A DNA stretch of 64,000 nucleotides from an uncultured Spirochaetales bacterium (GCA_964501435.1 CAZCTH010000001.1:2656-66655), one strand, 5' to 3'. Shown: positions 8,553 to 33,719, numbered from the stretch's first letter. The notes: generated by a model not told the origin, from the sequence alone. A program made the numbers and translations.

Positions 8553-8652
8553 GCCGATACCTCGGGGAGCCGCTGCGGCCGTCCGCGTAGGCGGGCCCGG
8601 CCGCGGAGCGCCCCCGTAGCGTGATGGGCACTCAGAACCTCCCCATCGCAAG

Positions 8653-8678
8653 CGCTCGGCTTGACATAGTGCCGAGCG
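8653..8678 (+). promoter_or_regulatory. 8-bp inverted repeat enclosing a TTGACA hexamer (operator or terminator-like hairpin)
   Basis: CGCTCGGC (8653-8660) pairs with GCCGAGCG (8671-8678). The 10-nt loop TTGACATAGT contains TTGACA at 8661-8666. It lies between the BtaA-like stop and the helicase start. Confidence 0.3.
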
Positions 8679-8706
8679 GCCGCGTCAATCGACTATCGGA
8701 CTCGAG

Positions 8707-10704
8707 ATGAGGGGGCCGCTTATGACTGAATCCGGACGAGAGCCTTGGCTCGACGGGATCGACGGCGATGCATTGCCCCGGCTGATCTCAGGACAAGCGA
8801 GGATCATCCGGGTCGTCGCCGGGCCCGGGTCAGGCAAGACAACGGGGTTGAAGCGCAGAGTGCAACGGCTTATCCAGGGGGAAAACGTTCGACCTGAGCA
8901 GATCTTCGTCGGGACGTTCACACGGGCCATCGCAGGCGAGCTTGCTGAGGCGCTCGGCGTGACCGTCGCCCGCGACGACGATGGCGACGAGCCGAAGGCA
9001 GTTTCGGTCTCGACGCTTCACTCACACGCACTGCGCCTAATCAGGAAACACCCGACTGCCCGACCCGGCCGAGAGATGCGATTCCTTCTCAGCTACGAGA
9101 AGGACGCAATGCTGTACGACATCGGCGAGGCGCTCTCGGATTCGATGGATCAGAATGCTCGGAAGCGCGAGCTGAAGCGGGTGTGCGCGCAGTGGGCGAA
9201 GGGCACGGACCTGGACACGGCAGGGTTCGTCGGAGAGATGGAACGCTGGCTCCGCCACCATCGCGGCATGCTAATCGACGAGGTAGTAAACCTCGCCAGG
9301 ATCGGCCTCGAGTCCGGCGAGATTCCAAGCGGCGAGTTCGATCACGTTGTCATCGATGAATACCAGGACCTAACCGCGGCCGAGCAGCGCCTCGTCGAAT
9401 TGATCTGGTCGAAAGACGGATCGCTGGTCGTCCTCGGAGACGACGACCAATCCATCTACTCGTTCCGCCACAACCACCCGGGCGGTATCAGCGAGTTTCT
9501 CGAGCGCTGGGTCGCTGAGGAGCCGGCGGACCTGAGCATTCCAGAGAACAGGCGATGTGGTCGCGTGATCGTTGAGATTGGCAACGCGATGATGGCAGCA
9601 GCGGGTAGCGCGAAGCCACCAATGATCTCGCGTAGGGGTGAAGAAGGTGAGGTCGCGTTTGTATATTGGCCGCCGCTTGCCCACGAAGTTGGCGGTCTGG
9701 CGAAATACATGCAGGCGCGGAAGGACACTCGCTTCCTCGTACTCGTCCCTCGCCGATTCATCGGATATCTGCTGAAGCGTGCCCTCGGAGCTGACGCGGT
9801 GACCGCGTTTCACGAAGAGGCGCTTGAGGTGCCGGCCGTTCAGGAGCGCTTCGCATTGGCAGCGCTAGTAGCGAATCCTGAAGACCGGATCGCGCTACGA
9901 ACAGTGTTGGGGTTCTGCGCCGGAGGGTCTTTGTGGGCTTCGAAGAGAAACGCTTGCGCCTACAGGAGCCTCCAGGCGGTCCCGCTAGTGGGTAGAGCCC
10001 TACTTGAGGCGATTGCGGCTGGCGATGCGAAGCTCCGAGGCGGGGGATCCAAGCACGTGCAGGATCGGGCGCAGCATGCGAGGGATCTCCTCGCTGGTAT
10101 GCCGGAGGACACAGAAAAGCGAATAGAGATTCTCTTCGACCCTGCGGTCGCGGCGCCCATCGCAGACCCGGAAGTTCGCGACGAGGCTCGGAGGGACCTG
10201 GAGGAGCTGCGCCACTCGGCGCATGAGATCCGCCAGCGGCTGAACCAGCCAACCCTCGCCAAGGTCCTCGAACGTCTCCGGTACCGCATCGCGATGCGGC
10301 TCCCGCTCGCCGAGTCGGAGGAATCCCGGGTGCGGATCATGACACTCCACGGAGCCAAGGGTCTCGAAGCAGACGTGGTTGTCATCGCAGGGGCGGCAGA
10401 CCAAATCATTCCCGGGTTCCCGCCGAACGAACCGGCCGGAGAAGCACGGCACCGGGAAGAGCAGCGGAGACTGCTGTACGTCTCGGTGACGCGCGCGAAG
10501 CGCGAGCTCGTGGTTTCGTGGCCGCTTAGCATCGAGTACAAGGACGCGATCAAGAATCAGGTACGGAGGGATGGCGGTGTTCGGACGCAGGCCCGCAAGA
10601 AGGTTGTGGATCTCGGGGCGAGCCGCCTCGTGCCCGACGCTCAGACGCGGCCGCAAACAGGTGCGAGCTGGCTCAAGAGGAAGCTCGCGCCTACGAGCAG
10701 CTGA
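8707..10704 (+). CDS. UvrD/Rep-family superfamily-1 DNA helicase
   Basis: Motifs AGPGSGKTT (Walker A), VIDEYQDLT (II), GDDDQSIYSFR (III), ENRRCG (IV), TLHGAKGLEADVV (V), LLYVSVTRAKREL (VI). Confidence 0.9.
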   Translation: MRGPLMTESGREPWLDGIDGDALPRLISGQARIIRVVAGPGSGKTTGLKRRVQRLIQGENVRPEQIFVGTFTRAIAGELAEALGVTVARDDDGDEPKAVSVSTLHSHALRLIRKHPTARPGREMRFLLSYEKDAMLYDIGEALSDSMDQNARKRELKRVCAQWAKGTDLDTAGFVGEMERWLRHHRGMLIDEVVNLARIGLESGEIPSGEFDHVVIDEYQDLTAAEQRLVELIWSKDGSLVVLGDDDQSIYSFRHNHPGGISEFLERWVAEEPADLSIPENRRCGRVIVEIGNAMMAAAGSAKPPMISRRGEEGEVAFVYWPPLAHEVGGLAKYMQARKDTRFLVLVPRRFIGYLLKRALGADAVTAFHEEALEVPAVQERFALAALVANPEDRIALRTVLGFCAGGSLWASKRNACAYRSLQAVPLVGRALLEAIAAGDAKLRGGGSKHVQDRAQHARDLLAGMPEDTEKRIEILFDPAVAAPIADPEVRDEARRDLEELRHSAHEIRQRLNQPTLAKVLERLRYRIAMRLPLAESEESRVRIMTLHGAKGLEADVVVIAGAADQIIPGFPPNEPAGEARHREEQRRLLYVSVTRAKRELVVSWPLSIEYKDAIKNQVRRDGGVRTQARKKVVDLGASRLVPDAQTRPQTGASWLKRKLAPTSS

Positions 10705-10942
10705 CCAGCGCACGCCCTGATTCGCCATTGGGGCCATCTCCCGGCGCGCGGCATGTGCCTCTAGCTGTCGCCATCCGCATCTTGGTGGACGGCGCAGTGG
10801 TCATGGTTGGCGCCTCTTGGCCATTCCGAGACCGCCAAGTCGATGCGAGAAGGGCGCGCCCAAGTCGCGTCCAAATACTCCTGTCGACGCTCCGTTGCGC
10901 CGTCTCTGATCAAGCCCGGGTAGACCCGGCTGGGCATGGGGA

Positions 10943-11965
10943 TTGCTCCGCCGGAAACCCGTGCGAGCCCCCCGTCCCGCAAGCCTCCAGGCGCAACGCG
11001 AACTCCGTCTGCGCGAAAAGCTCGAACGCGAGCTGGGCGCGGACGTGCGTGCTGCGCTCGGAGATCCCACGGTCGTTGAGGTCGTCCTCAATGCGGACGG
11101 CGAGCTGTGGGTTGAGCGCCTCGGGAAGGAGATCGAGCCGCTTTGCGCGAGGATGGAACGCGTCCAGGCAGAGTCCCTAATTGGCACGGTCGCCGCACTG
11201 CTCGATCGCGAGATTCATGACGAGCGGCCGATTCTCGAGGTCGAGCTGCCGTTCGATGGGAGCCGCTTCGAGGGCGTGATGCCTCCGATCTCTCGCGCGC
11301 CGATCTTCGCGATTCGGCGCCGGGCGGTGCGGGTGTTCACGCTCGACGAGTATGCGGGCGCCGGGACGGTCTCGCCGGAGCGCGCCACGCAGCTCCGCGA
11401 GGCGATCGAGCACCGCCACACAATTCTGATCTGCGGTGGCACTGGCTCTGGCAAGACGACGCTCGCGAACGCGCTGATCGCGGAGGCGGTTCGAGCAGCC
11501 GGCCCCGCCGAGCGCTTCCTGATTCTCGAAGACACGCTTGAGCTGCGCTGCAACGCGCCCAATCACGTGCAGCTACGCACTTCCGAGTTCGTCGATCTCG
11601 AGCGATTGGTGCGCGCGACGATGCGCCTGCGCCCGGATCGGATTGTTGTTGGGGAGGTCAGGGGGAGGGAGGCTCTTGCGCTCTTGAAGGCGTGGAACAC
11701 CGGTCATCCCGGGGGAGTGACGACCGTGCATGCCAACAGCGCGAGGGCAGCCCTCTCCCGCCTCGACCAACTGGTCCAGGAGGCGGGCGTGCCATCCCAG
11801 CCTCAGCTCATCGCGGACGCGATCGACTGGATCGTGTCGATCGCGCGCACGCCGAGTGGGCGGCGCGTGACGGAGATGGTTCGAGTGCGCGGGTGGATTC
11901 CGGGCTCCGGCTTCGATCTGGAGACGTTTGCCCGTGACAACTCAGACGAAGGAGATGAGAAGTGA
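10943..11965 (+). CDS. trbB: P-type conjugative transfer ATPase TrbB (VirB11 family)
   Basis: Walker A GGTGSGKTT, the VirB11-type core (LILEDTLEL, RLRPDRIVVGEVRG) and its position at the head of the trb operon. Start (TTG at 10943) is uncertain. Confidence 0.9.
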   Translation: MLRRKPVRAPRPASLQAQRELRLREKLERELGADVRAALGDPTVVEVVLNADGELWVERLGKEIEPLCARMERVQAESLIGTVAALLDREIHDERPILEVELPFDGSRFEGVMPPISRAPIFAIRRRAVRVFTLDEYAGAGTVSPERATQLREAIEHRHTILICGGTGSGKTTLANALIAEAVRAAGPAERFLILEDTLELRCNAPNHVQLRTSEFVDLERLVRATMRLRPDRIVVGEVRGREALALLKAWNTGHPGGVTTVHANSARAALSRLDQLVQEAGVPSQPQLIADAIDWIVSIARTPSGRRVTEMVRVRGWIPGSGFDLETFARDNSDEGDEK

Positions 11966-12285
11966 AGCGACATGAAACGTACGGCGCCGCGATCGGCCTC
12001 GCCGCCGCCTTGGTCGTCATCGGGCTCGCGACCGCGGCAAACGCGACACCTGCCGGGCCGACGATGCCCTGGGATCAGCCGCTCACGGTTCTCCTCAACA
12101 ACTTACAGGGGACCGTCGCGCGCATCCTCGTGACCGTGGCCGTGGTGATCACGGGGTTGCTCTTCGCGTTCGGCGAAGCGGGTGGCGCCTTCCGGCGCGT
12201 GTTTGGAATCGCGTTCGGCGCCGCGATCGCGCTGGGGTCGCTCTCCGTCCTCAGCAGCCTTGGCTTCGTTGGGGCGACGTTCTGA
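11962..12285 (+). CDS. trbC: TrbC/VirB2-family pilin
   Basis: 107 aa with a signal-like N-terminus and two hydrophobic helices. GTGA overlap with trbB. Confidence 0.8.
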   Translation: MKRHETYGAAIGLAAALVVIGLATAANATPAGPTMPWDQPLTVLLNNLQGTVARILVTVAVVITGLLFAFGEAGGAFRRVFGIAFGAAIALGSLSVLSSLGFVGATF

Positions 12286-12644
12286 TGTCGGGCGACGACG
12301 CGAAGCCCGACGCGCACATCGCTGCGGAGCCACGGCTGCTTCGGCTGCATACGTCGCTCACGCGGCCAGTGCTCTTCGCAGGAGCAGACCGCGGGCTCGC
12401 GCTTGCGAACGGCGTGATCGCGCTCGCGTTGGTCTTCGGGATCGGCCCGTCCTGGGCGACGATCGGCGTCGCCGGAATGCTGCTCGGCGTCGGCCACGTG
12501 AGCCTCGTGCTTCTCGCGAAGCGCGAGCCTGAGCTTCGAGCCCTTTACGTCCGGCACGTGCAGCACGCCCCGGTCTACCCGGCGGCTCCCGCAGAACTCC
12601 ACCGCTCTCCGCTCGTCCATCCAAGCGTTCCGGTCTCGGAGTAG
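12285..12644 (+). CDS. trbD: TrbD/VirB3-family protein
   Basis: 119 aa, hydrophobic. It sits between the pilin and VirB4 genes, and its start overlaps the trbC stop (TGATG). Confidence 0.8.
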   Translation: MSGDDAKPDAHIAAEPRLLRLHTSLTRPVLFAGADRGLALANGVIALALVFGIGPSWATIGVAGMLLGVGHVSLVLLAKREPELRALYVRHVQHAPVYPAAPAELHRSPLVHPSVPVSE

Positions 12645-12649
12645 GTCGA

Positions 12650-15073
12650 ATGCTTCGAGAGCACCGCACTCGCGCGCATGGGTTGCCGGACTTACTGAAC
12701 TTCGCGGCCCTCGTCGACGAAGGCGTCGTCCTCAACAAGGACGGATCGTTCCTCACCGCGTGGTGGTATGCCGGGCCCGACATGGAGTCCGCGAGCACGG
12801 TCGAGCTCGCCGCGCTCTCATCGCGCGTGAACGCGGCGCTGCTGAGGCTCGGCAACGGCTGGATGCTCCAATCGGACGCGATCCGCCGGCCGAGCGCTGG
12901 CTACGCGCCGCCCGGCGCATTCCCCGATGCAACGACGGCCGTAGTCGATGCGGAACGCCGCGCACAATACGAGAACGCCGGCGCCGGTTTCGAGAGCCTC
13001 TACGCACTCACCGCTGTTTGGCTTCCGCCGCGTGACGTGCAGGATCGCGTCGCGGGATGGTTCGTCGATGAGCCCGAGCGTAGAGTGGACGGATACGAGG
13101 GCGTGCTCCGCGCCTTCGTCCGAAGCGTCGAGGAGATCGAGGATGCACTTGCGGGCGCGCTGACGCTCGCACGCATGAACTCGGGCGATCTGCTCAGCTT
13201 CCTGCACTACTGCGTTACGACGGACCTGCAGGACATCCGCGTCCCCGGGACGCCGATGTATCTCGACGCGCTGCTCGGCTCCCGAGACCTCGTCGGCGGA
13301 TTCAAGCCGCGAGTCGGCACTCAGCGCCTCTGCGCGATCGCGCTGATCGGCTTCCCGGGTGAGACGTTTCCGCAGATCCTGAGCGGGCTCGGCCAGCTTT
13401 CGCTCTCGTTCCGATGGTCCAACCGGTTCGTGTCGCTGGACCCTGCAACTGCCGAGGCGCGCCTCAGGGTGATGCGTCGCAACTGGTTCCAGAAGCGCCA
13501 AGGGCTCTCGGGCTTGCTCAAGCAGGCCCTCTCGCTTGGCGAACCCACGTTTTCCAATCGCGATGCGGTCGCGATGGCGGAGGATGCGGACGAGGCGGTG
13601 CAGGAAGCCGCCTCGGGCGCAGTCCGCTTTGGGTACTTCACGAGTGTCGTGCTGCTCGCCGGCAGTGACGAGGCTGCGCTCGACGCAGCCGCGCGCCAGG
13701 TGCGGCGCCTCCTGCAGCACTGCGGATTTGCCTCGCGCGTCGAGGAAATGAACGCGCTCGAGGCGTACCTGGGGACGATCCCCGGACACGGGCACCGGAA
13801 CCTTCGGCGCCCGCTCGTGCACACGCTCAACTTCGCGGACCTGATCCCAACGACCAGCGTCTGGCCTGGTCTCGAAACAAACCCGAGCCCGCTTTTCGCC
13901 GCGCGTAGCCCCGCCTTGTTATACGCCCGCACCTCGGGCGCGACACCGTTTCGCCTGAACCTCCACGTCTCGGACGTCGGTCATACGCTCGTGATCGGCC
14001 CAACCGGTTCGGGCAAGACGACGCTGATCGGCCTCCTGATCGCCCAGTTCTTCCGCTACGCGGGCGCGCAGGTGTTCGCATTCGACAAGGGGCACGGCCT
14101 GGAGACGCTGGTGCGTGCCGCCACGGGCGATCACTACGACCTCGGCGGCGAGTCCTCCGAAGGCGGGCTCGCGTTGTGTCCGCTCAGCAACATCGATCGC
14201 CCAGGCGAGCGGCCGTGGGCCGCGGAATGGTTGGAGACGGTCGTGCGCCTTCAGGGGCTCACCGTTACGCCCGAGCATCGTCGCGCCGTTCAGATCGCGC
14301 TCGAGCGCCTCGCCGAGAGCCCCGCGCGTTCGCTCACGGACTTCGCGACTACCGTGCAGGACCGCGAGGTCCGCGCGGCGCTTAGGCACTACACGCTCGA
14401 GGGCGCACTGGGCGCACTCCTCGACGCGGAGCGCGACGGCCTCGGCACGGCCGCGTTCCAGGTCTTCGAGATGGAGCGACTCCTCAATCTCGGCGACGCG
14501 AACGCGACGCCGGTGCTCACTTGCCTCTTTCACCGGATCGAGGAGCGCCTCGACGGGCAACCCACGCTGATCGTGATCGAGGAGGCGTGGCTCGCGCTCG
14601 GGAACGTGCTCTTCGCCGAGAAGCTCGAGGAGTGGCTGCGCGTTCTGCGCAAGCGCAACGCGGCGGTCGTCTTCGTGAGCCAGAGCCTCGCCGAGGTGGT
14701 TGCGTCGCCGATGTGCGCCCTCTTGCTCGAGAGCTGCCCGACGAAGCTGTTGCTCCCAAACCCTGAAGCGCGGACGCCCCAGACGAGCTCCCTGTACCAG
14801 CGGATCGGGCTCACCAATCGGCAGATCGAGCTGATCGCGAGTGCAGTGCCGAAGCGCGAGTACTACTACGCGTCGCCGCTTGGGCGGCGCCTCATCGATC
14901 TCGGCCTCGGGCCGGTGGCGCTCTCGTTCGTCGGCGCCGCGAGCCCGGAAGAACTGCGCGAGGCGCGCGCTCTCCAGGTCGCGCACGGCACGGATTGGCC
15001 CGCAGCGTGGCTCAGCGCGCGCGGAGTCAGCGACTGGGCAGCTCTCTGGCAAGAACTCAAAGGAGAAACGTGA
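12650..15073 (+). CDS. trbE: TrbE/VirB4 conjugal transfer ATPase
   Basis: 807 aa with Walker A GPTGSGKTT and Walker B-like LIVIEEAW, in the synteny position of VirB4. Confidence 0.92.
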   Translation: MLREHRTRAHGLPDLLNFAALVDEGVVLNKDGSFLTAWWYAGPDMESASTVELAALSSRVNAALLRLGNGWMLQSDAIRRPSAGYAPPGAFPDATTAVVDAERRAQYENAGAGFESLYALTAVWLPPRDVQDRVAGWFVDEPERRVDGYEGVLRAFVRSVEEIEDALAGALTLARMNSGDLLSFLHYCVTTDLQDIRVPGTPMYLDALLGSRDLVGGFKPRVGTQRLCAIALIGFPGETFPQILSGLGQLSLSFRWSNRFVSLDPATAEARLRVMRRNWFQKRQGLSGLLKQALSLGEPTFSNRDAVAMAEDADEAVQEAASGAVRFGYFTSVVLLAGSDEAALDAAARQVRRLLQHCGFASRVEEMNALEAYLGTIPGHGHRNLRRPLVHTLNFADLIPTTSVWPGLETNPSPLFAARSPALLYARTSGATPFRLNLHVSDVGHTLVIGPTGSGKTTLIGLLIAQFFRYAGAQVFAFDKGHGLETLVRAATGDHYDLGGESSEGGLALCPLSNIDRPGERPWAAEWLETVVRLQGLTVTPEHRRAVQIALERLAESPARSLTDFATTVQDREVRAALRHYTLEGALGALLDAERDGLGTAAFQVFEMERLLNLGDANATPVLTCLFHRIEERLDGQPTLIVIEEAWLALGNVLFAEKLEEWLRVLRKRNAAVVFVSQSLAEVVASPMCALLLESCPTKLLLPNPEARTPQTSSLYQRIGLTNRQIELIASAVPKREYYYASPLGRRLIDLGLGPVALSFVGAASPEELREARALQVAHGTDWPAAWLSARGVSDWAALWQELKGET

Positions 15074-15852
15074 TGACGGCAATGAGCGACCGATTGCGAA
15101 GGATGACCTGCACGGTGGTAGTGGCGCTGGTGGCATTCACGGGACAGCCCGCGCGCGCCACCGGATTCCCGGTGATCGACATCAGCAACTTGGTTCAGAG
15201 CGTGCTTACCGTTGCGAAGCAGGCGCAGCAGGTGACGCAGGGGACGCGCAACCTCGCGCAGCAAGCGCAGCAGCTCCAGCACGAGATCGACATGCTGCGC
15301 GACATGGCGCGCAACACTGCGCCTGGAAAGACCGCCGCTTGGGGCGACGTGCAGGCCGTACTTGGGAGTCTCTCGCGAGTCCTCCAGATTGGACAGTCGA
15401 TTCCGTACACGCTCTCGAACGCCGCCTCGGCGTACCAGCAGCGCTTCCCCGGCTATACAAAGCCCAACAACTGGCAGGCCGAGTACAACGCCTGGTCGCG
15501 GACGGCGCTCGACACGCTGGCTGCGACGCTCGCCTCCGCAGGCGCCAACGTCGGCGACGCCGCGAGCGTCGAGAGCTCGCTGCAGACGTTGCGCTCGGCG
15601 AACGAATCTGCGCAGGGGCGACTCGAAGCGATCCAAGTGGGAACTCAGGTCGCGAGCCTTCAGGTCGCAGAGCTCACGAAGCTTCGCCAGCTCCTGGCCG
15701 TGCAGATCAACGCGCAGAACGCGTACCTCGGCGCGCAGGAAGCGAAGGAAGCTGGCGCCTTCGCGGCGTTCGATGCGTGGGTCGCCAGCGGACCGCGCTC
15801 GGCGCCGACAAGCCGCCCGGCGCAGGGCCTCGCGCGCGTGCCGCGGCCGTAG
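15073..15852 (+). CDS. trbJ: TrbJ (VirB5-like) conjugal transfer protein
   Basis: Start moved to the ATG at 15073 (TGATG overlap with trbE). Signal peptide, then GFPVIDISNLVQSVL and a coiled-coil, Q-rich body typical of TrbJ. Confidence 0.85.
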   Translation: MTAMSDRLRRMTCTVVVALVAFTGQPARATGFPVIDISNLVQSVLTVAKQAQQVTQGTRNLAQQAQQLQHEIDMLRDMARNTAPGKTAAWGDVQAVLGSLSRVLQIGQSIPYTLSNAASAYQQRFPGYTKPNNWQAEYNAWSRTALDTLAATLASAGANVGDAASVESSLQTLRSANESAQGRLEAIQVGTQVASLQVAELTKLRQLLAVQINAQNAYLGAQEAKEAGAFAAFDAWVASGPRSAPTSRPAQGLARVPRP

Positions 15853-15866
15853 TCCGAGCGATCGCG

Positions 15867-17024
15867 ATGACCACGATCCTCACCGACCTCGTGACGCAGT
15901 TCCAAGCCGCCACCTCCGGTTGGTTCCAGGCGTTGTTCCCGATCGCGCGGAACCTGTTCTTCACCCTGGCCGCGATCGAGCTCGTCTGGGCGGCGTCGTG
16001 GTGGGTCGTTGAGCGCGACGATCCAGCACAGATCCTGGTGCAGCTCCTCAAGCGAGTGATGGCGATCGGGTTCTTCCTCGCGGTGCTGACGTTTGCCGAC
16101 ACGTGGATCCCGGCTGTGATCGATGGTTTCTCGACCGCCGGCCAACAGGCATCCGGACTGCCCGAACTGAACCCGAGCACGGTGATCGATCAGGGAATCG
16201 CGATCGCGACGAGCCTTATCTCGAGCATCTCCGTTGCCGGATGGTTCACGTCGCCGATGGGCGGCCTGGTCGCCGCGTTCAGCGCGCTCGCCAGCTTCCT
16301 CGCATTCGTCGTGATCGCCGCGCAGCTCGCACTCGCGCTGATCGAGATGTACGTCGTCATCGGCGGTGGCGTGCTGCTGCTCGGCTTCGCGGGCTCACGC
16401 TGGACGATGCCGTTTGCCGAGCGGTACCTGAGCTACGCGGTCGCGGTCGGGATCAAGCTCTTCGTGCTCTACCTAATCGTGGGTGTCGGCACTGCGCTCG
16501 CGGCGTCCTGGAGCACGCTGATCGCCAACGCGGGCGCATCGTTCGCGGATCTCTTCGCGGTCGTCGGCGCCTCGCTCGTCTACATGATCGTGGCCTGGCA
16601 GATCCCCAGCTTCGCCTCGGCGCTGATCGCCGGCTCGGTGAACCTCACGCTCGGCACCGCCGCGTACACCGCGGCGTCGATGGGTGCGATCGCGCTCGGC
16701 GCGAAGGGGCTCGCCGTGCGCGCTGCCGCGGCCACCGCGGGCGCCACGACTGCGATGCTGGAAGCAGGCCGCTATGCGCGGGACGCGCGCGCTGTCGGCG
16801 CCGGGGGCGGGACGGGAGGCGCGATCGCCGGCGCGGGCGCACTCGCTCGAGAAACGCTTGCAACGCATGCGCGCCGCGCGATCGGCATGCGCGCGTCATC
16901 CACGGCGACCGCGATCGAAGAGGCTCGCGTGGCGCGCTTCGGCCCCGCGCTCATTGCGCAGCGCGCGGCGCGGCAAGAGAAGGGCGCACCGCGGCCGGCT
17001 GGCAATGAGGAGAATCGCTCGTGA
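15867..17024 (+). CDS. trbL: TrbL/VirB6 inner-membrane channel protein
   Basis: Start moved to the ATG at 15867 (MTTILTDLVTQFQAA...). Polytopic with an Ala/Gly-rich tail. The upstream 342 codons of the track ORF overlap trbE/trbJ in another frame and are Arg-rich noise. Confidence 0.85.
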   Translation: MTTILTDLVTQFQAATSGWFQALFPIARNLFFTLAAIELVWAASWWVVERDDPAQILVQLLKRVMAIGFFLAVLTFADTWIPAVIDGFSTAGQQASGLPELNPSTVIDQGIAIATSLISSISVAGWFTSPMGGLVAAFSALASFLAFVVIAAQLALALIEMYVVIGGGVLLLGFAGSRWTMPFAERYLSYAVAVGIKLFVLYLIVGVGTALAASWSTLIANAGASFADLFAVVGASLVYMIVAWQIPSFASALIAGSVNLTLGTAAYTAASMGAIALGAKGLAVRAAAATAGATTAMLEAGRYARDARAVGAGGGTGGAIAGAGALARETLATHARRAIGMRASSTATAIEEARVARFGPALIAQRAARQEKGAPRPAGNEENRS

Positions 17025-17677: not shown

Positions 17678-17685
17678 GGAGACCC

Positions 17686-26324: not shown

Positions 26325-26804
26325 ATGGCAACAACAACTCGCGACGGCATCCACTTCATCCGCGTGGTCGCAGTCCGCTACACCGGGCCGCGGCGGCGAT
26401 CGCCCGAGACGGTCCGCGCTCCGCGCGAGGCGACGGCGGTCATGCGCCGCATCATCCTCGACGACGCGCGCGAGCACTTCATCGCGCTCTACCTCGACGG
26501 CCGGCACCACGCGATCGCGCTCCAGGTCGTCTCGATCGGCACCGCGACTGCGTCGCTCGTCCACCCGCGCGAGGTCTTCCAGTCCGCAATCCTAATCGGC
26601 GCGTGCGGCGTGATCGTCGGCCACAATCACCCGTCGGGCGATCCGAGCCCGAGCCCCGAGGATCGCCAGATCACGCGTCGAATCGCCGACGCGGGCAAGC
26701 TCCTCGGCATCCCGCTGCTCGACAGCGTCGTGTGGGGCCACGGCGTTTCGTACGTCTCGCTGCGAGAGATCGCGCCGGACCTCTTCGGCTCGAGCGCAGA
26801 CTGA
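26325..26804 (+). CDS. radC: RadC-like JAB/MPN-domain protein
   Basis: JAMM motif GHNHPSGDPSPSPED, a RadC-type C-terminal half, and SD-like GGAGGG 7 nt upstream of the ATG. Confidence 0.88.
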   Translation: MATTTRDGIHFIRVVAVRYTGPRRRSPETVRAPREATAVMRRIILDDAREHFIALYLDGRHHAIALQVVSIGTATASLVHPREVFQSAILIGACGVIVGHNHPSGDPSPSPEDRQITRRIADAGKLLGIPLLDSVVWGHGVSYVSLREIAPDLFGSSAD

Positions 26805-27116
26805 CGGTGCGCGGCACTCGCGTCGCGCACGTCGGACGCGAGCGGTCGCTGAGCCAGCCCCCCATCTCACCCCCTCGTCGACTCCTCGCTGACCGCCAAG
26901 TCGACGCACACGCAGCGCGTCCCGCCAGAGCCGCGATCGCGTGTTTCGCCATCCGTGTTCGTCCGGTTTTCCCCCTCTGGTGCTGCACCTCTTAGGGCCT
27001 GGCCCAGCCGTCGCCTATGCGCGCAAGGCACCGCTGCGCTCGCCTGCGGCGGCCTTGCGCGCGGCTCCGGCTGGTCCGCATCGGCCCGAGGTGCAACGCA
27101 CCAAGGAGGAAACCCG

Positions 27117-27527
27117 ATGATGACTCTCACTTACTTCAACGAAACACTCGACCGCCTGCTGGGCGGGGCGCGCTGCGTGCGCATTACCGTCGACGGCTAC
27201 ATGACGCTCGTCGTCGAGGAGGTCGGGCCGTCGGCGGATGGCCGCCGACTCATCGCGCTCGCGCACACGGCCGTGCAGAACGGCGACGTAATGCACGACC
27301 CCGAGATCGTGTTCGAGCTCCATGCGCTCGGCGCAGAGCCGATCTCCTTCCGCAACGACTACGTCGGCGCGTACAACGAGGTGTACGCATACGATCACGC
27401 CGGTCGCCGCACCGGCGTGTATCCGAAGCGACGCGCCGAGCTTCAGTCCTTCGCGCGCATGTGGTTTCGCAACCTCCGCGCGCAGGGCTTCCTGGGAGAC
27501 GCCGCGCGACGCGAGGTTCTCGCATAG
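27117..27527 (+). CDS. hypothetical protein (conserved-looking, soluble, 136 aa)
   Basis: Strong SD AAGGAGGA at 27104-27111 followed by tandem ATGs at 27117 and 27120. Composition is coding-like. I cannot name a family with confidence. Confidence 0.6.
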   Translation: MMTLTYFNETLDRLLGGARCVRITVDGYMTLVVEEVGPSADGRRLIALAHTAVQNGDVMHDPEIVFELHALGAEPISFRNDYVGAYNEVYAYDHAGRRTGVYPKRRAELQSFARMWFRNLRAQGFLGDAARREVLA

Positions 27528-27705
27528 CCCGCGCGGACCTCGGGCCCGTCGCGCCTCGCGCGCGGCGGGCTCGCGGCTCGGTCGCCTACGTCCCGCGCTC
27601 AGCAGATGTCGTCGCAGAGCGGTCTCCTCGGAGGAGCGTTCGGCGAGCGCCTCGACCGACCGTCAAGTGCGCGGCTATTCTGACTTCGCGCGTGAGGGGC
27701 ATCGC

Positions 27706-28098
27706 ATGATCGTCGCGGAATTCATCCTTGTCGCGTTCGTCGCGGGCATCCTCGCGAAGAGCGGCTGGATCGCGATCGCGACGTTCGCTCTGCTCTACAG
27801 CGTCTACCGCTACAGCCGACTCTCTGTCCTGCTCGCCGCGTTGCTGATCGCTTATTGGGCGGCAGTCGGCTTTCAGGTTGGCCGCGGCGTGAGCGGCCCG
27901 GTCGGCGCCTTGGCTGGCGCGGTAGTGGCGGGTCTGGTGTCCGCGCGCGTGCACCGCGATGCCTTCACTCGTCTACGTGGGCGGGGAGAGATCAGGCAGA
28001 CTCCTGCGCCGCAACCGGTAGCGTTCAGTGCATCGCCGGTGCCGAAGACTCACCGCGAAGGCGACGTGATCGACGTGGAGTACCGCGTCGTTTCGTAA
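27706..28098 (+). CDS. small membrane protein (3 predicted TM helices), unknown function
   Basis: ATG at 27706. MIVAEFILVAFVAGILAKSGWIAIATFALLY.. followed by two more hydrophobic helices and a charged tail. The upstream part of the track ORF is Arg-rich noise. Confidence 0.55.
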   Translation: MIVAEFILVAFVAGILAKSGWIAIATFALLYSVYRYSRLSVLLAALLIAYWAAVGFQVGRGVSGPVGALAGAVVAGLVSARVHRDAFTRLRGRGEIRQTPAPQPVAFSASPVPKTHREGDVIDVEYRVVS

Positions 28099-28170
28099 CG
28101 CGAGCGCGCCATTGTCTCGCTCAGCCCGTTGTCGATTCGATGCATGATCGGGCTCCGCTTGGGAGTCGGA

Positions 28171-28345
28171 TGGCAGCGCGAGTGGACTTGGCTTTGGCAG
28201 CGCGTATGCGTGATGAGCTGCGCGGGAGAGGGAGCGGGTCGGGGAGAGATCGGAGGAGAGAGGAGTTGTTATAGAATCTTGTGCAAGATAAAGAGTGCTG
28301 GACGGAATCTCGCAACCGCTCGATTCTCAAAGGAAATCTGTTGGA
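28171..28345. promoter_or_regulatory. repeat-rich, locally AT-rich intergenic block
   Basis: The role could be an oriT, a promoter remnant or a rearrangement junction. TGGCAGCGCG occurs at 28171-28180 and again at 28195-28204. A purine-rich tract runs 28224-28265 (37 of 42 nt). An AT-rich stretch follows with GAATCT at 28274 and 28305, GATTCT at 28322 and GAAATCT at 28333. Confidence 0.35.
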
Positions 28346-28406
28346 CGACGCGCGAAGAGCGCACATCCGGCACAGGTTCAGCCTCGAGGGCTACTAGAGG
28401 CCTTGG

Positions 28407-28925
28407 CTACTTACGCGGCTGGCGTTCGCCTGAGCCACCATTCACGGCCGGAGCTGCTGCCGGAGCGAAGGCGTCCGAAGTGCGTGCGGCGTGCTCATCC
28501 ACCGCCGTCAGCCACGCGCGATGCCGCGCCGAAGCACTCTGTGAACGCGTTGCTCGCAGCTCGGGCGGAACCTCTGGCATGTGCAGCATCAGCCCGAAGT
28601 AGAGCCGATCGAGCATCGCCTCGGCTCGCGCAATCCGTAGGTCGATCGAAGCAAGAGTGTCCGTGTGGTCGTCGATCCGGGCGGCGATCCGCGCCTCGAG
28701 TTCGAGCAATGGCAGGGGCACGCGCCGCGGCGCATCGGTGTCGGCCGGGAGGAACCGCACCGCCTCCGCGGTCACGTCTCGCGCGGCGAAGGCCTCCGCG
28801 AGAGCAGTGCGAACGATTTCCGAGAGCCGCTCCCCGGTCGCAGCCGCCTCGCGCAGCATCCGCTGGTAGAGCGCCTCGGCGATGTGCGTGCGCACTTCGT
28901 ACTGCTTCCGTCGTTCATTGCTCAT
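28407..28925 (-). CDS. ribbon-helix-helix (CopG-like) protein following traG
   Basis: Start moved to the ATG at 28925 (MSNERRKQYEVRTHIAEALYQRMLREAAATGERLSEIVRTAL is an RHH-type N-terminus). It overlaps the traG stop by 11 nt. Confidence 0.6.
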   Translation of the reverse strand: MSNERRKQYEVRTHIAEALYQRMLREAAATGERLSEIVRTALAEAFAARDVTAEAVRFLPADTDAPRRVPLPLLELEARIAARIDDHTDTLASIDLRIARAEAMLDRLYFGLMLHMPEVPPELRATRSQSASARHRAWLTAVDEHAARTSDAFAPAAAPAVNGGSGERQPRK

Positions 28926-30996
28926 GCTGCGCTCCCGAGCGCGCGCTCTCACCGAACATCTTCTCTTGCGCGAGGAGTTGCTCCGGCGCAACTACCGTCG
29001 AGGCGGCGCCCGCTGTCCAAGGGCACGCGCGGGAACGCAGCCGATCCGACTCCCGCGGCGCAGCGATCGCCGCTCGTCGCGCGAACTCTGCGTTCTCGAA
29101 GTACCGCAGCTTGCTTGCGAGAATCGGCCGAGCGCCGGCGACGAAGACCAGTGCAGCGTCGGCCGGCAGGCGCATGGCTTCGTCAGGCGTCAGCAGAGCC
29201 CGGTGCGACTCCTGCTCGGATGCGAGCACGTGCATGAGCACTGGGTTGAGGCGATTTCCCGTGTACGTGCGGCTCTCCTTGTGCACGGTCATCGCACCCG
29301 CCATGTCTGACAAGAGTCGCGCTGTCTCGACGCGATTCGGAGCGAAAGCGACGCGGACATGGCAGTTCGACACGATGCTCTCGTCGCGGCCGTACGCGGC
29401 GTAGAGCTGCGAAAGGTCCTGCACGATGAGGAACGCCTGAATCCCGTAGCCGGACAGGTACGAGAGCTGACTCTGGAAGAAATCGAGCCGCCCGAGCGTC
29501 GGGAACTCATCCATCAGCAGAAGAAGCTGGCGGCGGTCCCGCCGACCGTTGCTGTCCGGCGCGTGCAGTTCTTCCGTCAAACGCCGCCCGACCTGCTGGA
29601 TCAGAAGCCGGGTCAGCGACCGTGTGCGCGCTAGATCTGACGGCGGAACGGTCAGGTAGAGGCTCACGGTGCGATCGGGGCGAACCAGGTCGGCGATGCG
29701 AAAATCGCAGGCGGATGTGTTCGCGGCCACGATGTCGTCGTGGTAGAGGCTAAGGAACTTCGTGGCCGAGGAGAGCACGCTCGACCGCTCGTTCTCGGAC
29801 TTGTTCTTCAGCGATCGCGCAGCACGCGCGACCGCGGGGTGCGTCGGCGTGGCTTCCCCGGTTGTTGGGTCGTGCCATCCGCGCGTCAGGCCAGGATCGT
29901 GCGGCGCATTGAGCATCTCATCGAGCACGGTGCCGATCGTGCGGCTCGGGTCCGTGAGGAAGTCGAGGCAGCCGCGCAAGCTCTTGTCGGGTCGCACGTA
30001 GAGCACGTGCAGAATCGTGCCCGCGAGAACTTCCTGCGCAGTGAGATCCCAGTGGTCCTTCGTGCCCGCGCCATCCGGATCGACGAGCATGTCGGCGATC
30101 GTCTGAACGTCGCGCACTTCGAACGGCCCGCGCCGCACCTCGAGCAACGGGTTGTATCGCGCGGCGCTTCCGTCGGCGCAGGTGGGGTCGAAGCGCAGGC
30201 AAGTGCTGCCGAGCTCGCGCTGGCGAAACCCCGCGGTGAGCGACCAGTTCTCGCCCTTCACGTCGTTCACGAGCACGGAGTGCGGCCAGGTAAGAAGCGT
30301 CGGGATCACCCAGCCGACGCCTTTGCCCGAGCGCGAAGGCGCGAAGCCGAGGACGTGTTGAGGCCCGGCGTGGCGAAGTGGGAGCTCGCGCCGGCCGCGC
30401 TGCCAGACGCCGACGTAAATGCCTTGCCGACCCAACAGCCCCGCAGCTTCGACATCGAGATCGGACGCCCATCGTGCAGAGCCGTGCAGGTCGCTCTTGC
30501 CGCCGACCCGCCGCGCTCGCCGCACGGCGATCGCGATTCCAACGATGAAGACGAAGTGCGCCGGTACTCCAATCAGCCAGTGGCCGGTGCGAAAGATCGC
30601 GTCGGTAGCGGGTGTGCTCGCGAAGCGGAGCTCCCAGATGAAGAAGTCCCAGGGTGCGTAGATCGGGCCGAGCCACGCCGCTGCCGCGGCGATCGCCGCA
30701 ACCGTCGAGGGAGCGGCGAACCGACGTGCGGGCACATGAAACGTGGACAGGAATGCAACCGCTGCGAGTAGAACAGCGAAGGCAGCGAGCGCGACACGCG
30801 CATCGGGCGACGCCGTGAGCAGTGGCGCGCCGAGCGCGCGTTGGAAGCCGAATCGCCACGCGGTCCATTGCGTCGTCGCCCACAGAACGAGAACGATGGT
30901 TGCGGCTACCGAAATCAGCGAGGCGAAGAGAACGCCGGCCGCACTGTTGCCGTCGGTGCCGCCGGGCAGGCGATAGAGAGCGAGTCTTTTCTGCAC
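28915..30996 (-). CDS. traG: TraG/VirD4 type IV coupling protein
   Basis: 693 aa with N-terminal TM helices, a P-loop-like FAPSRSGKGVGWVIP and the conserved LLLLMDEFPTLG (Walker B region) typical of T4CPs. Confidence 0.9.
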   Translation of the reverse strand: MQKRLALYRLPGGTDGNSAAGVLFASLISVAATIVLVLWATTQWTAWRFGFQRALGAPLLTASPDARVALAAFAVLLAAVAFLSTFHVPARRFAAPSTVAAIAAAAAWLGPIYAPWDFFIWELRFASTPATDAIFRTGHWLIGVPAHFVFIVGIAIAVRRARRVGGKSDLHGSARWASDLDVEAAGLLGRQGIYVGVWQRGRRELPLRHAGPQHVLGFAPSRSGKGVGWVIPTLLTWPHSVLVNDVKGENWSLTAGFRQRELGSTCLRFDPTCADGSAARYNPLLEVRRGPFEVRDVQTIADMLVDPDGAGTKDHWDLTAQEVLAGTILHVLYVRPDKSLRGCLDFLTDPSRTIGTVLDEMLNAPHDPGLTRGWHDPTTGEATPTHPAVARAARSLKNKSENERSSVLSSATKFLSLYHDDIVAANTSACDFRIADLVRPDRTVSLYLTVPPSDLARTRSLTRLLIQQVGRRLTEELHAPDSNGRRDRRQLLLLMDEFPTLGRLDFFQSQLSYLSGYGIQAFLIVQDLSQLYAAYGRDESIVSNCHVRVAFAPNRVETARLLSDMAGAMTVHKESRTYTGNRLNPVLMHVLASEQESHRALLTPDEAMRLPADAALVFVAGARPILASKLRYFENAEFARRAAIAAPRESDRLRSRACPWTAGAASTVVAPEQLLAQEKMFGESARSGAQHEQ

Positions 30997-31078: not shown

Positions 31079-32959
31079 TCACCGGCTGCGCGAATGCTCG
31101 TGCATGCGCTCGAGGTCATCGAGCGTCCAAGTGACGCGTCGGCGTTGATCGTCCTGCTGGATCTGAGCATGAGCGCGCGTGTCGTGACCGATCGGAACGG
31201 AGCGCTCCACGACAGGTACAACTGTGAGCTGTCGGCCCGTGTCGATCACGGCATGCAGCGCTTCGCGTTCATCGACCGCGTAGGCGACCAAGCGCCCTTC
31301 GTGGCTAAGCGCGGGCGTTTCAGAAGCCGGCCGAGCAGGCTTTCCGAAGCGCGGCTCGACCTCGGCGACCCTGAGCCGTGAGTGCTCTCGCTCGTTGGAT
31401 TGCTTTTCCACTTCTCGCTCCGCTCCTTGAATGACGATCAACCGCTGCGCCTCGCCGAGGCCGTGACGGCGGATGAGTCCAGCGCGCTCCAGCAGCGGGA
31501 GGCGGTCGCGGACCGCGTGCCACCAACGCGCCTGGAAGCCGCGCGGTCGCGCGCCCTCTGCGCGTTCCGGCTGTCCTGAACGAAGCCATTCGAGGGCGTC
31601 GAGATCGAGCGCCGTCGACGGCGTATCGACGCGCTGTAGGTCGCCGATGCGACCGTGCGCGAGCACCTGCGTCCCGCCGAGAGGCGCTCGGCGAATCGTT
31701 GCAACGCTGCCTGGCCTAAGAACCCCGGCGGCGCGGCTCGAAGAGATGGCTTGCTCCTCGCGCAGAATGTGGCGGCGACCATCAGTGGCTTCAACCACGA
31801 GAAGAGTCCCGTCCGAGGTCTCGGAGTAGCCCGCTCCCGCAACGCGTCCGCGAATCTCTTGGCCTGGAGCGAGCGTCGTAACAACAACCGGCGCGCGCGC
31901 GTCCGTGATGCCGACTCCGCCGCGCCACATGCTCTTCTGGACGTCGCCCGCGATCTGAAGCTCGCGCAGCTTGGCTTCGAGGTTCGCGTCGAGCTGCCAC
32001 TCGTGCTTCGAGAGGTGCTCCGCGAGACCCAGCGAGCGGAGGTAGAGGAGGCGCCGGAGCTCTTGGGGGAAGAGGCCGCTCGCCATGCCCTCGCGGCCGC
32101 TCGCAGGCGCCGCCACGCGACCATCGGCGGTCGCCCGACGAAGGAGACCTCGATCGATCTCTGTCACGCGCGGCGCTTCGATCGCTCGTTCCCTCGCTGT
32201 GAGCCGCTCTCGATCCTGGCGAAGGCCCAGCGTTCGCGTCAGGACCTCCTGGCTTCGCGCGCGGATTCCTTCGCGCACGTAAGCGCGTGGGAATCGGAGC
32301 TCGCGGCCGCTGCGATCAACGCCGCGAATAACAACGTGGACATGCGGATGGTCGGTGTCGTGGTGGTCGATGGCGGCCCAGTCGAGTTCCACATCGAGGT
32401 CGCCTTCCACTGCGCGTACGAGCGCGCGCGCGTGGGCGTGAAGATCGACTCGATCCCCCGCTTCAGGGGAGACCACGATTTTCCAGAGGCGCCGATCGCC
32501 GGCGCGCTGCCAGTCATCGAGACGATCGGGGAGATGCACGTCTTCCCGATCCGCGTCGAAGCCGATTCCCCTCTCGCTTTCGCGCTGGGCTCCCTTTCGG
32601 CCCAGGTACTGCCCATACGCGCGGAAGCCACCTGGCCGCGCGTGAGAGAGGAACGAGACCTTGACGAGGCTGCGCTGGAGCAAGGGCGACGACAGCGGAG
32701 ATGTTGCGAGAGAGCGCGCGCGAGGGCCCTGATGAGACCGCCGGAGAGCACTGCCCGAACGAAGGCGCCCCTGCTCGCGGCGAATTCGGGAAGGTCGGAC
32801 GCGCGCGGCCGGCGCATCGTCGGTGGAGATTTGGCGAGTTTCAACGAAGACTGACGAAAGCTCGTTCGCGGCACCGCCGGATTCGCGCGCCGGCAAGGCC
32901 TCTGCGCGCGCCGCGTCTCGGTGAACGCGGCCAGGTCGAATCCGTCGGCGGGTCGTCAC
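31079..32959 (-). CDS. relaxase/mobilisation nuclease (DUF3363-type, MOB-P-like histidine triad)
   Basis: Motifs WKIVVSPEAGDRVDL and DHHDTDHPHVHVVIRG, with a long C-terminal extension. ATGA overlap with the traF stop. Confidence 0.85.
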   Translation of the reverse strand: MTTRRRIRPGRVHRDAARAEALPARESGGAANELSSVFVETRQISTDDAPAARVRPSRIRREQGRLRSGSALRRSHQGPRARSLATSPLSSPLLQRSLVKVSFLSHARPGGFRAYGQYLGRKGAQRESERGIGFDADREDVHLPDRLDDWQRAGDRRLWKIVVSPEAGDRVDLHAHARALVRAVEGDLDVELDWAAIDHHDTDHPHVHVVIRGVDRSGRELRFPRAYVREGIRARSQEVLTRTLGLRQDRERLTARERAIEAPRVTEIDRGLLRRATADGRVAAPASGREGMASGLFPQELRRLLYLRSLGLAEHLSKHEWQLDANLEAKLRELQIAGDVQKSMWRGGVGITDARAPVVVTTLAPGQEIRGRVAGAGYSETSDGTLLVVEATDGRRHILREEQAISSSRAAGVLRPGSVATIRRAPLGGTQVLAHGRIGDLQRVDTPSTALDLDALEWLRSGQPERAEGARPRGFQARWWHAVRDRLPLLERAGLIRRHGLGEAQRLIVIQGAEREVEKQSNEREHSRLRVAEVEPRFGKPARPASETPALSHEGRLVAYAVDEREALHAVIDTGRQLTVVPVVERSVPIGHDTRAHAQIQQDDQRRRVTWTLDDLERMHEHSRSR

Positions 32960-33501
32960 GGGCGATCGAGGCTCAGCGTCGCAATCGGCCTGAGCGAAGC
33001 GATCACTGAAGAGACCGGGACGGGGCCGAAGTAACGGCTATCCCAGCTGCGATCGTCATCGACGCCGATCAGCCAAACCTCGCTGGGACCGACCGAGTGC
33101 CGACCCAGAGGCCAGTGCGAGAGCGGACGGGCCAGCGAGTCCCGCGTTCGCAGCGCACTGGTTGAGATGCGCTCGCCATTCACAGCCAAGTCGGTCGCGC
33201 TCAACTCCACCATGTCGCCCGGCGTCGCCGCGATCCGCTTGCCGACTGGGCTCGCATGTAAAGCGCACGAACCGCCCGGTAGATAACCACGCTCGCGACC
33301 GGCGTGCGCAGTCGGTGGCGGCAAGCAGACGAGGGAGATCTCACCGCGCCTGACTATCGGCGGACCAATGCTGTAGAGTCCGACCGGCATCGATGCCGTC
33401 CAGTTGAAGCGGACGCCTGCGATCTGCGGCGGTGCTATGACCGCCACACAGAGCGCGCCGGCGCAAGCGAGCGCAGTCCCGCGTATGAGGACCACTCTCA
33501 T
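32956..33501 (-). CDS. traF: TraF, S26-family signal-peptidase-like conjugative pilin-maturation protease
   Basis: 181 aa with a signal anchor, NWTASMPVGLY (Ser nucleophile region) and a C-terminal DDRSWDSRYFGPV motif. Confidence 0.85.
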   Translation of the reverse strand: MRVVLIRGTALACAGALCVAVIAPPQIAGVRFNWTASMPVGLYSIGPPIVRRGEISLVCLPPPTAHAGRERGYLPGGSCALHASPVGKRIAATPGDMVELSATDLAVNGERISTSALRTRDSLARPLSHWPLGRHSVGPSEVWLIGVDDDRSWDSRYFGPVPVSSVIASLRPIATLSLDRP

Positions 33502-33719
33502 GGGACCGAGCGGAGAGTTCGCTCCAGCGGTGGTGTCTGGGAAGTCGACTCCCGGACGCCGCTGCGCACGAACTCATCAAGTTCGGTCGGGTCGTATCGC
33601 ACCGCGTTTCCCAGCTTCACGAATCGCGGGCCGCGCCCCTCGATGCGCCACTTCTGGAGCGTGCGCACGCTGAGTCCGAGACGGCTCGAAACCTCGGCCT
33701 CTCGCAAGAGTGCAGACAT
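33498..33719 (-). CDS. AlpA/excisionase-like helix-turn-helix protein
   Basis: 73 aa. LGLSVRTLQKWRIEGRGPRFVKLGNAVRYDPTELDEFV is an AlpA/MerR-type wHTH. It is the first gene of the minus-strand transfer operon. Confidence 0.75.
   Translation of the reverse strand: MSALLREAEVSSRLGLSVRTLQKWRIEGRGPRFVKLGNAVRYDPTELDEFVRSGVRESTSQTPPLERTLRSVP

Follow-up and report, generated by a model that had tools for sequence, protein, structure and literature searches.

Convergent tra and trb operons as the apparent standard architecture of a Myxococcota-associated clade of conjugative elements

Results

A complete conjugative backbone in two facing blocks

We analysed a 64,000-nucleotide stretch of DNA from an uncultured Spirochaetales bacterium (GCA_964501435.1 CAZCTH010000001.1:2656-66655; hereafter the window), which carries a conjugative element with its transfer genes in two blocks on opposite strands. 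Genes were called by Pfam and NCBIfam profile searches and defence genes with PADLOC. The profile searches bore out the gene map given in a preliminary description of this DNA, including its division of the transfer genes into convergent halves. On the plus strand lie trbB, trbC, trbD, trbE, trbJ, trbL, trbF, trbG, trbI and a DUF2274 gene, in that order (10943/10961-20146); on the minus strand an HTH_17 gene, traF, a relaxase gene, traG and a small open reading frame (ORF) run towards them (33719-28407), and 8.26 kb separates the two blocks. The transfer genes had been described as unduplicated, and tblastn of all transfer proteins against the window indeed found no second copies. The genes are listed below; L and P numbers denote loci of relatives.

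10961-11965, plus: trbB, VirB11-type ATPase (NCBIfam TrbB_P, 403 bits, above cut-off; Pfam T2SSE; 88% identity to L006)
11962-12285, plus: trbC, pilin (Pfam TrbC)
12285-12644, plus: trbD, VirB3-like (Pfam VirB3)
12650-15073, plus: trbE, VirB4 ATPase (Pfam; NCBIfam TrbE subfamily NF010404, 844.8 bits, cut-off 810)
15073-15852, plus: trbJ (NCBIfam TrbJ_Ti, above cut-off)
15867-17024, plus: trbL, intact (NCBIfam TrbL_P, above cut-off)
17021-19916, plus: trbF (VirB8), trbG (VirB9/CagX) and trbI (VirB10) (Pfam VirB8, CagX, TrbI)
19913-20146, plus: DUF2274 gene, msi021-like, last gene of the trb block (Pfam DUF2274)
28407-28925, minus: small ORF of 172 amino acids (aa), 3' of traG (synteny in relatives; no family match)
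28915-30996, minus: traG, type IV coupling protein (Pfam T4SS-DNA_transf)
31079-32959, minus: RlxS-like relaxase gene, MobA/VirD2 nuclease plus DUF3363 (Pfam)
32956-33501, minus: traF, S26 pilin-processing peptidase (Pfam Peptidase_S26)
33498-33719, minus: HTH_17 gene, RdfS/excisionase-like, first gene of the tra block (Pfam HTH_17)

The P-type set (Trb; mating-pair formation type T, MPF-T) is complete, comprising TrbB, C, D, E, J, L, F, G and I. Every Trb protein save TrbL has a Pfam match, and the NCBIfam equivalogs TrbB_P, TrbJ_Ti and TrbL_P all score above cut-off; TrbL itself has 385 aa and is 92% identical to the TrbL of L006, the closest trb relative. Homology to L006 ends at 20225, 78 nt past the DUF2274 gene (blastn). 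The preliminary description had trbB begin at 10943; the gene is as described, but the TTG at that position falls within a promoter-like motif (see below), and the start is likely to be the GTG at 10961.

On the other strand, the coupling protein and the relaxase are both present, which together with the Trb proteins makes a self-transmissible gene set. The HTH_17, Peptidase_S26 and DUF3363 relaxase genes are adjacent and co-directional (33719-31079), as an rdfS-traF-rlxS module. Scores against the NCBIfam models were 673.3 bits for IncP-type TraG (cut-off 674), 97.2 bits for TraF_Ti (cut-off 100.25) and 186 bits for relax_RlxS (cut-off 850), and the HTH_17 protein was below the cut-off of the excisionase domain.

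The small ORF is 37-59% identical to the corresponding neighbours of traG in L002-L004, and its homologs (27-38%, tblastn) lie between traG and trbB in L042, L047, L048, L057 and L058. Judged by these alignments, it is homologous to the gene that relatives with the canonical order carry between traG and trbB. Its earlier labelling as a ribbon-helix-helix (RHH) gene could not be confirmed: the 172-aa protein had no Pfam, NCBIfam or PDB-sequence match, and an AlphaFold monomer model (pLDDT 66) was all-helical and found no Foldseek match. Its N-terminal pattern is compatible with strand-helix-helix, by inspection only.

All transfer ORFs are intact, lack internal stops and equal those of relatives in length. 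Ratios of nonsynonymous to synonymous substitution rates (dN/dS) against L006 were 0.06-0.19 for the trb genes and the DUF2274 gene (trbE, 0.08); against L002/L003 they were 0.18-0.28 for traG, the relaxase, HTH_17 and small-ORF genes, and a 130-aa gene that faces the small ORF. Since the pairs compared already have the split layout, the genes appear to have been kept working by selection since the rearrangement. From this we infer that the element would be proficient in transfer, and the suggestion that it has been immobilised finds no support in genes that are intact and under purifying selection.

Close relatives share the convergent layout

A genome scan with a TraG alignment gave 80 loci, onto which the window proteins were mapped and from which a TraG neighbour-joining (NJ) tree was built. 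The flanks of relatives were limited to 10 kb, and all but one of the split-layout relatives therefore show one half each. The closest TraG relatives with context (L003, 77%; L002, 74%; L004, 70%) read (HTH_17)-traF-relaxase-traG-small ORF, followed not by trbB but by a convergent gene of ~130 aa; L004 has no called HTH_17. L002, L003, L004/5, L010, L017 and L090 each have a homolog of the 130-aa gene, convergent with the small ORF. The right breakpoint that had been proposed for a recent inversion (28.10-28.41 kb) is therefore a conserved arrangement and not a recent junction. An independent Logan contig with an identical TraG (L001, 3 samples) also spans this junction, from 27341 to ~38 kb, with identical sequence.

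A corresponding picture was found on the trb side. The TrbB relatives L006 (88%), L007 (72%), L008 (69%) and L092 (67%) have trbB through to the DUF2274 gene, and neither traG nor the small ORF was found upstream of trbB in any of the four. Furthermore, L008 and L004 are adjacent stretches of a single 59,694-bp contig, logan:ERR5023171_414 (TraG 70%, TrbB 69% identity), in which trb lies on the plus strand (L008, record 9915-30895) and traF-relaxase-traG-small ORF on the minus strand (L004, record 30908-53082, reversed). Between these blocks lies ~11 kb of different cargo (MmeI-like restriction-modification, ThiF, RadC, ArdC). The left flank of this contig is the same operon as in the window, encoding an MMPL transporter, a histidine kinase (HK), a sigma54 regulator, a LolA-like protein and a DUF3419 protein. 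This operon lies 5' of trbB in three cases (window, 266-8552; L008, 85-8410; L092, 1-6892). In the more distant L095 no trb genes lie downstream of it, and the operon is therefore chromosomal and outside the element.

In the NJ tree the loci with the split layout form a monophyletic clade with TraG identities of at least 59% (window, L002-L004, L010-L015, L017, L063, L090/91), and trbB was found 3' of traG in none of its members (2-10 kb of downstream sequence each). Most of the sources are metagenome-assembled genomes (MAGs) labelled Myxococcota, Deltaproteobacteria or 'delta proteobacterium', and they include a closed chromosome, OZ245817.1. The outgroups comprise Thermoanaerobaculia/Acidobacteriota, Caulobacter/Acidiphilium and ~45 Binataceae-type loci. 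In nearly all outgroup loci with enough downstream sequence, traG and trbB are co-directional and 0.2-3.3 kb apart, and several have a small-ORF homolog (27-38%) between them; P0044 (TraG 57% identity) also has the co-directional order. The canonical order on which the preliminary description relied is thus real: it is documented for Tn4371-like integrative and conjugative elements (ICEs; PMC2789088) and for ICEMlSymR7A-type elements (PMC8627217), and it was seen in these distant loci and P0044. The synteny comparison that the same description called for speaks against its main proposal, in that close relatives share the convergent layout. On these genome comparisons, that layout appears to be the standard architecture of a Myxococcota-associated clade and not the product of a recent disabling inversion.

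Two variants were also seen. Many distant relatives (L027-L081, P0044) carry trbF-trbG-trbI-traF-relaxase-traG-small ORF-trbB-trbC-trbD-trbE-trbJ on one strand, with the VirB8/9/10 genes 5' of the relaxase rather than 3' of trbL. Within the clade, a subclade with TraG identities of 59-61% (L012-L015, L063) has traF-relaxase-traG-small ORF followed directly by metabolic genes, and trb genes are missing from the 2.6-10 kb of sequence available there. Such loci may have decayed, or they may be derivatives that are mobilisable only.

A sigma54-type motif heads each operon

The two operon heads carry motifs of one type, found by pattern scan and conservation:

10933-10947, plus: sigma54-type -24/-12 promoter motif GGCATGGGGATTGCT, head of the trb operon
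33747-33761, minus: sigma54-type -24/-12 promoter motif GGCACGCCCCTTGCT, head of the tra operon

When the regions 5' of trbB from five split-layout loci were aligned, they proved unalignable but for one invariant block, GGCAY-N5-TTGCT, which is the sigma54 -24/-12 consensus with the correct GG-N10-GC spacing. This pattern has two matches in the 64 kb (0.2 expected), one at each operon head. Every split-layout locus with trbB (window, L006, L007, L008/L009, L092) has the trbB-side motif, with constant spacing to the start, and the motif occurs in 0 of ~45 co-directional loci; a motif score of at least 9 occurs in 2.3% of random 220-nt windows. On the tra side, GGCACGCCCCTTGCT lies 28 nt 5' of the HTH_17 start and is followed by a GGGAGG ribosome-binding site; the motif 5' of HTH_17/traF is kept in L001, L002, L003, L010 and L090, and is weaker in L004, L011 and L017.

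The trb genes had been supposed to be uncoupled from their native promoter. However, trbB has a conserved, clade-specific motif of its own, of the same type as the tra motif, and the trb operon is therefore not orphaned. From pattern and conservation we infer that both motifs would act as promoters and that the two operons would be co-regulated. Promoters dependent on sigma54 (RpoN) are abundant in Myxococcus. No paper on the control of conjugative transfer operons by sigma54 turned up in a full-text literature search. Simple scans for sigma70 promoters and terminators at both junctions were uninformative.

A similar motif match in Thermoanaerobaculia loci was rejected as a promoter, as it lies inside an SSB-like coding sequence. 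The chromosomal operon next to the element includes an NtrC-type sigma54 activator gene (5309-6628), and its nearness to the trbB motif may be either meaningful or coincidental.

Defence cargo and a conserved module between the operons

The interval between the operons contains the following features:

20143-21735, plus: CBASS (cyclic oligonucleotide-based antiphage signalling system) cyclase/CD-NTase gene (Pfam SMODS; PADLOC Cyclase)
21797-22150, plus: CBASS E2-like protein gene (PADLOC E2)
22093-23151, plus: CBASS patatin phospholipase effector gene (Pfam Patatin; PADLOC Effector)
23133-25640, plus: fused type II methyltransferase and BsuBI/PstI-like restriction endonuclease gene (Pfam Eco57I, BsuBI_PstI_RE_N, BsuBI_PstI_RE; PADLOC MTase_II/REase_II)
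26325-26804, plus: radC-like gene, conserved backbone (Pfam RadC)
27117-27709 (ORF 27017-27709), plus: DUF6908-like gene, conserved backbone (81-85% identity to L002, L003)
27706-28098, plus: 130-aa membrane-protein gene facing the small ORF, conserved backbone (homologs in relatives)
28099-28406, no strand: convergence gap, the proposed right breakpoint (no inverted-repeat partner, tRNA or Rfam match)

All 8 kb had been taken for accessory genes. This holds for 20143-25640, which is defence cargo (CBASS and the fused methylase-nuclease), and not for the radC, DUF6908-like and 130-aa genes, which are kept in relatives and are therefore backbone. The radC product is 61-66% identical to those of L004, L010 and L090, and matches L017 in fragments of 57-67%. 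The L002 homolog of the DUF6908-like protein matches PF21849 (DUF6908); the window protein itself has no Pfam match. Identities of the 130-aa protein to the convergent ORFs of L003, L002 and L004 are 58, 55 and 38%. A simple scan found no terminator-like site in 28099-28406.

By comparison of the relatives' contents, the slot between the DUF2274 gene and radC appears to be one of fast turnover. The defence island had been placed just beyond the terminus of the ICE; that position is unsupported, and the island lies inside the element, in a cargo slot with a backbone module on either side.

In the cyclase ORF the domain is preceded by an N-terminal extension of ~165 aa, overlapping the DUF2274 stop, which may not be real. 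The fusion ORF (23133-25640, 835 aa) joins an Eco57I-type methyltransferase to a BsuBI/PstI-type endonuclease with helix-turn-helix and catalytic domains, and its best PADLOC match is the full-length type II methyltransferase model (MTase_II). Other defence-type cargo lies in the slots of L004 (16033-22175), L090 (826-5475 and 13666-17769), L092 (20214-21002) and L007 (19506-21011). It includes an MmeI-like restriction-modification enzyme, a ThiF/E2/JAB ubiquitin-like system, McrBC with a REase-ARP protein, an SNF2 helicase, a ResIII endonuclease and a protein kinase.

Flanks and element ends

The G+C content is 64-72% across the whole window (genome, 68%), with no break in composition. To the left (266-8552) is the operon of MMPL transporter, histidine kinase, NtrC-type sigma54 response regulator, LolA-like and DUF3419 genes, and beyond 33.8 kb on the right is a long plus-strand run of oxidoreductase, amidohydrolase and acyl-CoA genes; both flanks look like ordinary chromosome. 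One further gene stands between the left flank and trbB:

8707-10704, plus: UvrD/GajB-like helicase gene (Pfam UvrD-helicase; PADLOC GajB models)

What lies between the chromosomal DUF3419 gene and trbB varies among relatives, and the helicase gene in this slot does not belong to the conserved backbone. The PADLOC scan found no GajA partner for it, and it is missing from the slot before trbB in L006, L007, L008 and L092. The slot of L008 contains a DDE transposase, and that of L092 a deaminase and a DUF5677 gene; a 670-aa ORF upstream in L006 was rejected as a counterpart, being not homologous to the window helicase.

No Phage_integrase match was found among the window ORFs scanned, although such a gene could lie outside the 64-kb window, and no recombinase or invertase gene was found among these ORFs either. 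The window has no homolog of the L011 integrase described below, and the genes at 8.5-33.8 kb and in the flanks include neither repA, parA nor parB. Inverted repeats at the segment ends were at the level expected by chance for 68% G+C, the best arms being 35-39 nt, 72-80% identical and inside coding sequence; the search at both junctions thus gives no indication of an invertible switch. Between the outer boundaries there were no direct repeats longer than 12 nt (best, 12 nt at 8649-8660 / 33770-33781; E ~0.05).

The tRNA-like fragment reported earlier was not recovered: ARAGORN found no tRNA in the window, and Rfam scans of 8.4-11.0, 19.9-28.45 and 33.6-34.4 kb, by gathering threshold and by E-value, gave noise only. 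A weak tRNA-like string does lie at 34062-34106 (minus), outside the interval described before and ~300 nt outside the tra motif, where a D-arm-like GGTAGAGCAG is joined to GGGTTCGAACC...GCCA. As a tRNA fragment it was rejected; it is single-copy, folds no better than shuffled sequences and has no ARAGORN or Rfam match.

In L090 an intact tRNA-Thr(CGT) (51-126) lies ~330 nt 5' of HTH_17, and its position and orientation match those of the string in the window. In L011 (TraG 71%; 14168-18162), genes for an IS110-family transposase, a 441-aa tyrosine integrase, tRNA-Arg(CCG) and tRNA-Val come after the small ORF. No trb genes were found near the small ORF of L011, which suggests a mobilisable derivative with its own integrase; among the flanks of L010, L011, L012, L017 and L063, only those of L011 have an integrase. 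Together, L090 and L011 hint that integration in other members of the clade is associated with tRNA genes.

In relatives, the genes immediately beyond the head of the tra operon are ordinary chromosomal ones (AcrB, PEMT, CNNM, UbiA and P-type ATPase). A metagenome scan for an empty site with the DUF3419 protein returned 10 loci, mostly short, none of which joins DUF3419 to the right flank of the window. Between the window and ERR5023171_414 the flank proteins are 46-64% identical and the transfer proteins 37-79%. Such similar divergence is compatible both with a long stay at one locus and with one site having been used repeatedly. In L007, whose TrbB is closer (72%), the left flank is a different one, which argues for some mobility or rearrangement.

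The right flank (34224-64000) is rich in paralogous oxidoreductase and catabolic genes, among them three nitronate monooxygenase-like genes, three luciferase-like monooxygenases, one Rieske oxygenase, several acyl-CoA dehydrogenases and two amidohydrolases (60% identity); it could be either ordinary chromosome or the cargo of a larger island.

Discussion

Origin of the split layout

We consider it likely that the window, from a Myxococcota-like genome, holds a chromosomally resident RdfS-TraF-RlxS/TraG/P-type Trb element, of the kind that includes Tn4371 and ICEMlSymR7A, belonging to a clade whose ancestral backbone consists of two convergent operons. An inversion, or an equivalent rearrangement, probably separated the small ORF from trbB a single time, in the common ancestor of the clade; inversion of a trb-containing segment would be the most likely cause. 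Each operon would then begin at an outer edge of the element and read inward, towards the variable cargo slot and the conserved radC/DUF6908-like/130-aa module. The trb operon would be run from its own sigma54-type promoter, matching the one at the tra head, and a sigma54 activator would switch on both halves together. Of the inversion proposed in the preliminary description, the geometry survives and so, probably, does one past break; an inversion in this genome does not, since relatives share the layout.

Several observations weigh against this account. The leader between the trbB motif and the GTG at 10961 is only ~2-3 nt long, the element contains no activator gene, and two upstream alignments revealed no conserved upstream activator site. 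Neither an integrase, att repeats nor a tRNA was found in or beside the element, which is therefore not established as a mobile ICE. The NJ tree carries no support values, and both halves occur together on two contigs only (the window and ERR5023171_414). In P0044 radC lies upstream and co-directional, a position which means that one inversion may not explain every difference. Finally, L012-L015/L063 and L011 have the tra block without the radC/130-aa module, and the tra and trb blocks may also move or decay independently.

A possible but doubtful alternative is that this is not a conventional excising ICE but a conjugation system without an integrase, which several Myxococcota lineages have long kept beside the MMPL-HK-sigma54 activator-LolA-like-DUF3419 operon. 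In that case the host sigma54 network would drive both operons, the slot would serve defence turnover, and chromosomal DNA could be mobilised in an Hfr-like manner rather than the element transferring itself. The shared left operon and the parallel divergence of flanks and transfer proteins would suit such long residence; the different left flank of L007 points to some mobility.

It is unlikely that two separate modules, a trb cassette encoding only the type IV secretion system and a mobilisable traF-relaxase-traG unit, were joined tail to tail independently and became lasting partners. Consistent with this history, homology to L006 begins exactly at the promoter and ends 78 nt past the DUF2274 gene, as expected of a discrete trb block; in L012-L015/L063 neither trb nor the radC/130-aa module accompanies the tra block within 10 kb; and the small ORF of L011 is directly followed by an IS110 transposase and a tyrosine integrase beside tRNA-Arg. 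However, TrbB and TraG diverge in step (69/70% in ERR5023171_414; 72/74% in two contigs of metagenome 3300019360), the small ORF beside traG is a homolog of the gene between traG and trbB in co-directional elements, and the backbone is contiguous in all outgroups. The simplest history would therefore be one break in a contiguous ancestor, as in the account that we favour.

A recent inversion in this genome, from ~10.8 to 28.3 kb, that flipped trb with the accessory genes, cut off the trb promoter and immobilised the element is very unlikely. Flipping the segment does yield HTH-traF-relaxase-traG-small ORF-trbB...DUF2274, the outgroup order, and the failure to find an integrase is compatible with a defunct element. 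Yet the layout is common to relatives at 59-77% TraG identity, in which the genes flanking both supposed breakpoints are conserved; no transfer gene is disrupted, and dN/dS is 0.06-0.28; a conserved promoter motif of its own precedes trbB; and the junctions lack inverted repeats. We find it scarcely credible that the layout is an assembly chimera of two contigs joined head to head at one junction: the source is a metagenome-assembled contig of 127,634 bp and the relatives are MAGs, but L001 spans the right junction identically, synteny across both junction regions recurs in unrelated assemblies, and composition is unbroken. A programmed switch between co-directional and convergent states has only its geometry to recommend it and can practically be dismissed, as the segment ends have only chance-level repeat arms, the window ORFs scanned include no invertase or recombinase gene, and every assembly shows only the convergent state.

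Implications

The backbone order of Tn4371/ICEMlSym-type elements has been held to be highly conserved, and both ICE-finding tools and annotators lean on synteny. The present analysis shows a whole clade, in the poorly studied Myxococcota, with the backbone as two facing operons headed by sigma54-type motifs and with defence cargo between them. Loci with the split layout should not be scored as broken or immobilised, and for the present locus the 'inversion' is ordinary for its lineage. The clade also suggests a route by which a break in the backbone may be compensated, namely the gain of a matching promoter, and it offers a testable case of sigma54-controlled conjugation.

Comparison with known systems

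The motifs agree with sigma54 promoters, which have a -24 GG and a -12 GC in TGGCAC-N5-TTGCW, and the same elements occur with correct spacing at both operon heads.

Tn4371-family ICEs of Ralstonia, Cupriavidus and other Betaproteobacteria share with the window the TraF peptidase, the RlxS/VirD2-like relaxase, the IncP-type TraG and trbBCDEJLFGI without trbK or trbH, in the same internal order (PMC2789088). In Tn4371-like ICEs the whole series traF/relaxase...traG-small gene-trbBCDEJLFGI is co-directional (PMC2789088). In Tn4371 trb follows traG on the same strand, whereas in the window the trb block faces the tra block. Tn4371 also carries int, repA, parA and parB, whereas no int or rep/par genes were found in the window, and the relaxase of the window directly abuts traG, without a variable region or traR.

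The set shared with ICEMlSymR7A-type ICEs and plasmids of Mesorhizobium comprises an msi031-like small gene, trbBCDEJLFGI, msi021 (DUF2274), traG, rlxS, traF and rdfS (HTH_17) (PMC8627217). However, msi107 (transglycosylase) is absent from the window, an IntS-like integrase was not found, and in place of quorum-sensing/FseA regulation, which was not seen in the window, sigma54-type motifs head both operons. The small gene of the window also stays with traG and not with trbB.

The co-directional relatives (Binataceae/'delta proteobacterium', Thermoanaerobaculia, Caulobacter and Acidiphilium MAGs; P0044) have TraG identities of 41-57%, TrbB identities of 44-69% and homologs of TraF and the relaxase. 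Unlike in the window, their traG and trbB, with a homolog of the small ORF between them in several cases, lie on the same strand, and a sigma54-type motif 5' of trbB is lacking. The organisation of ICEMlSymR7A-type elements has been called 'remarkably conserved' (PMC8627217), and the clade described here departs from it.

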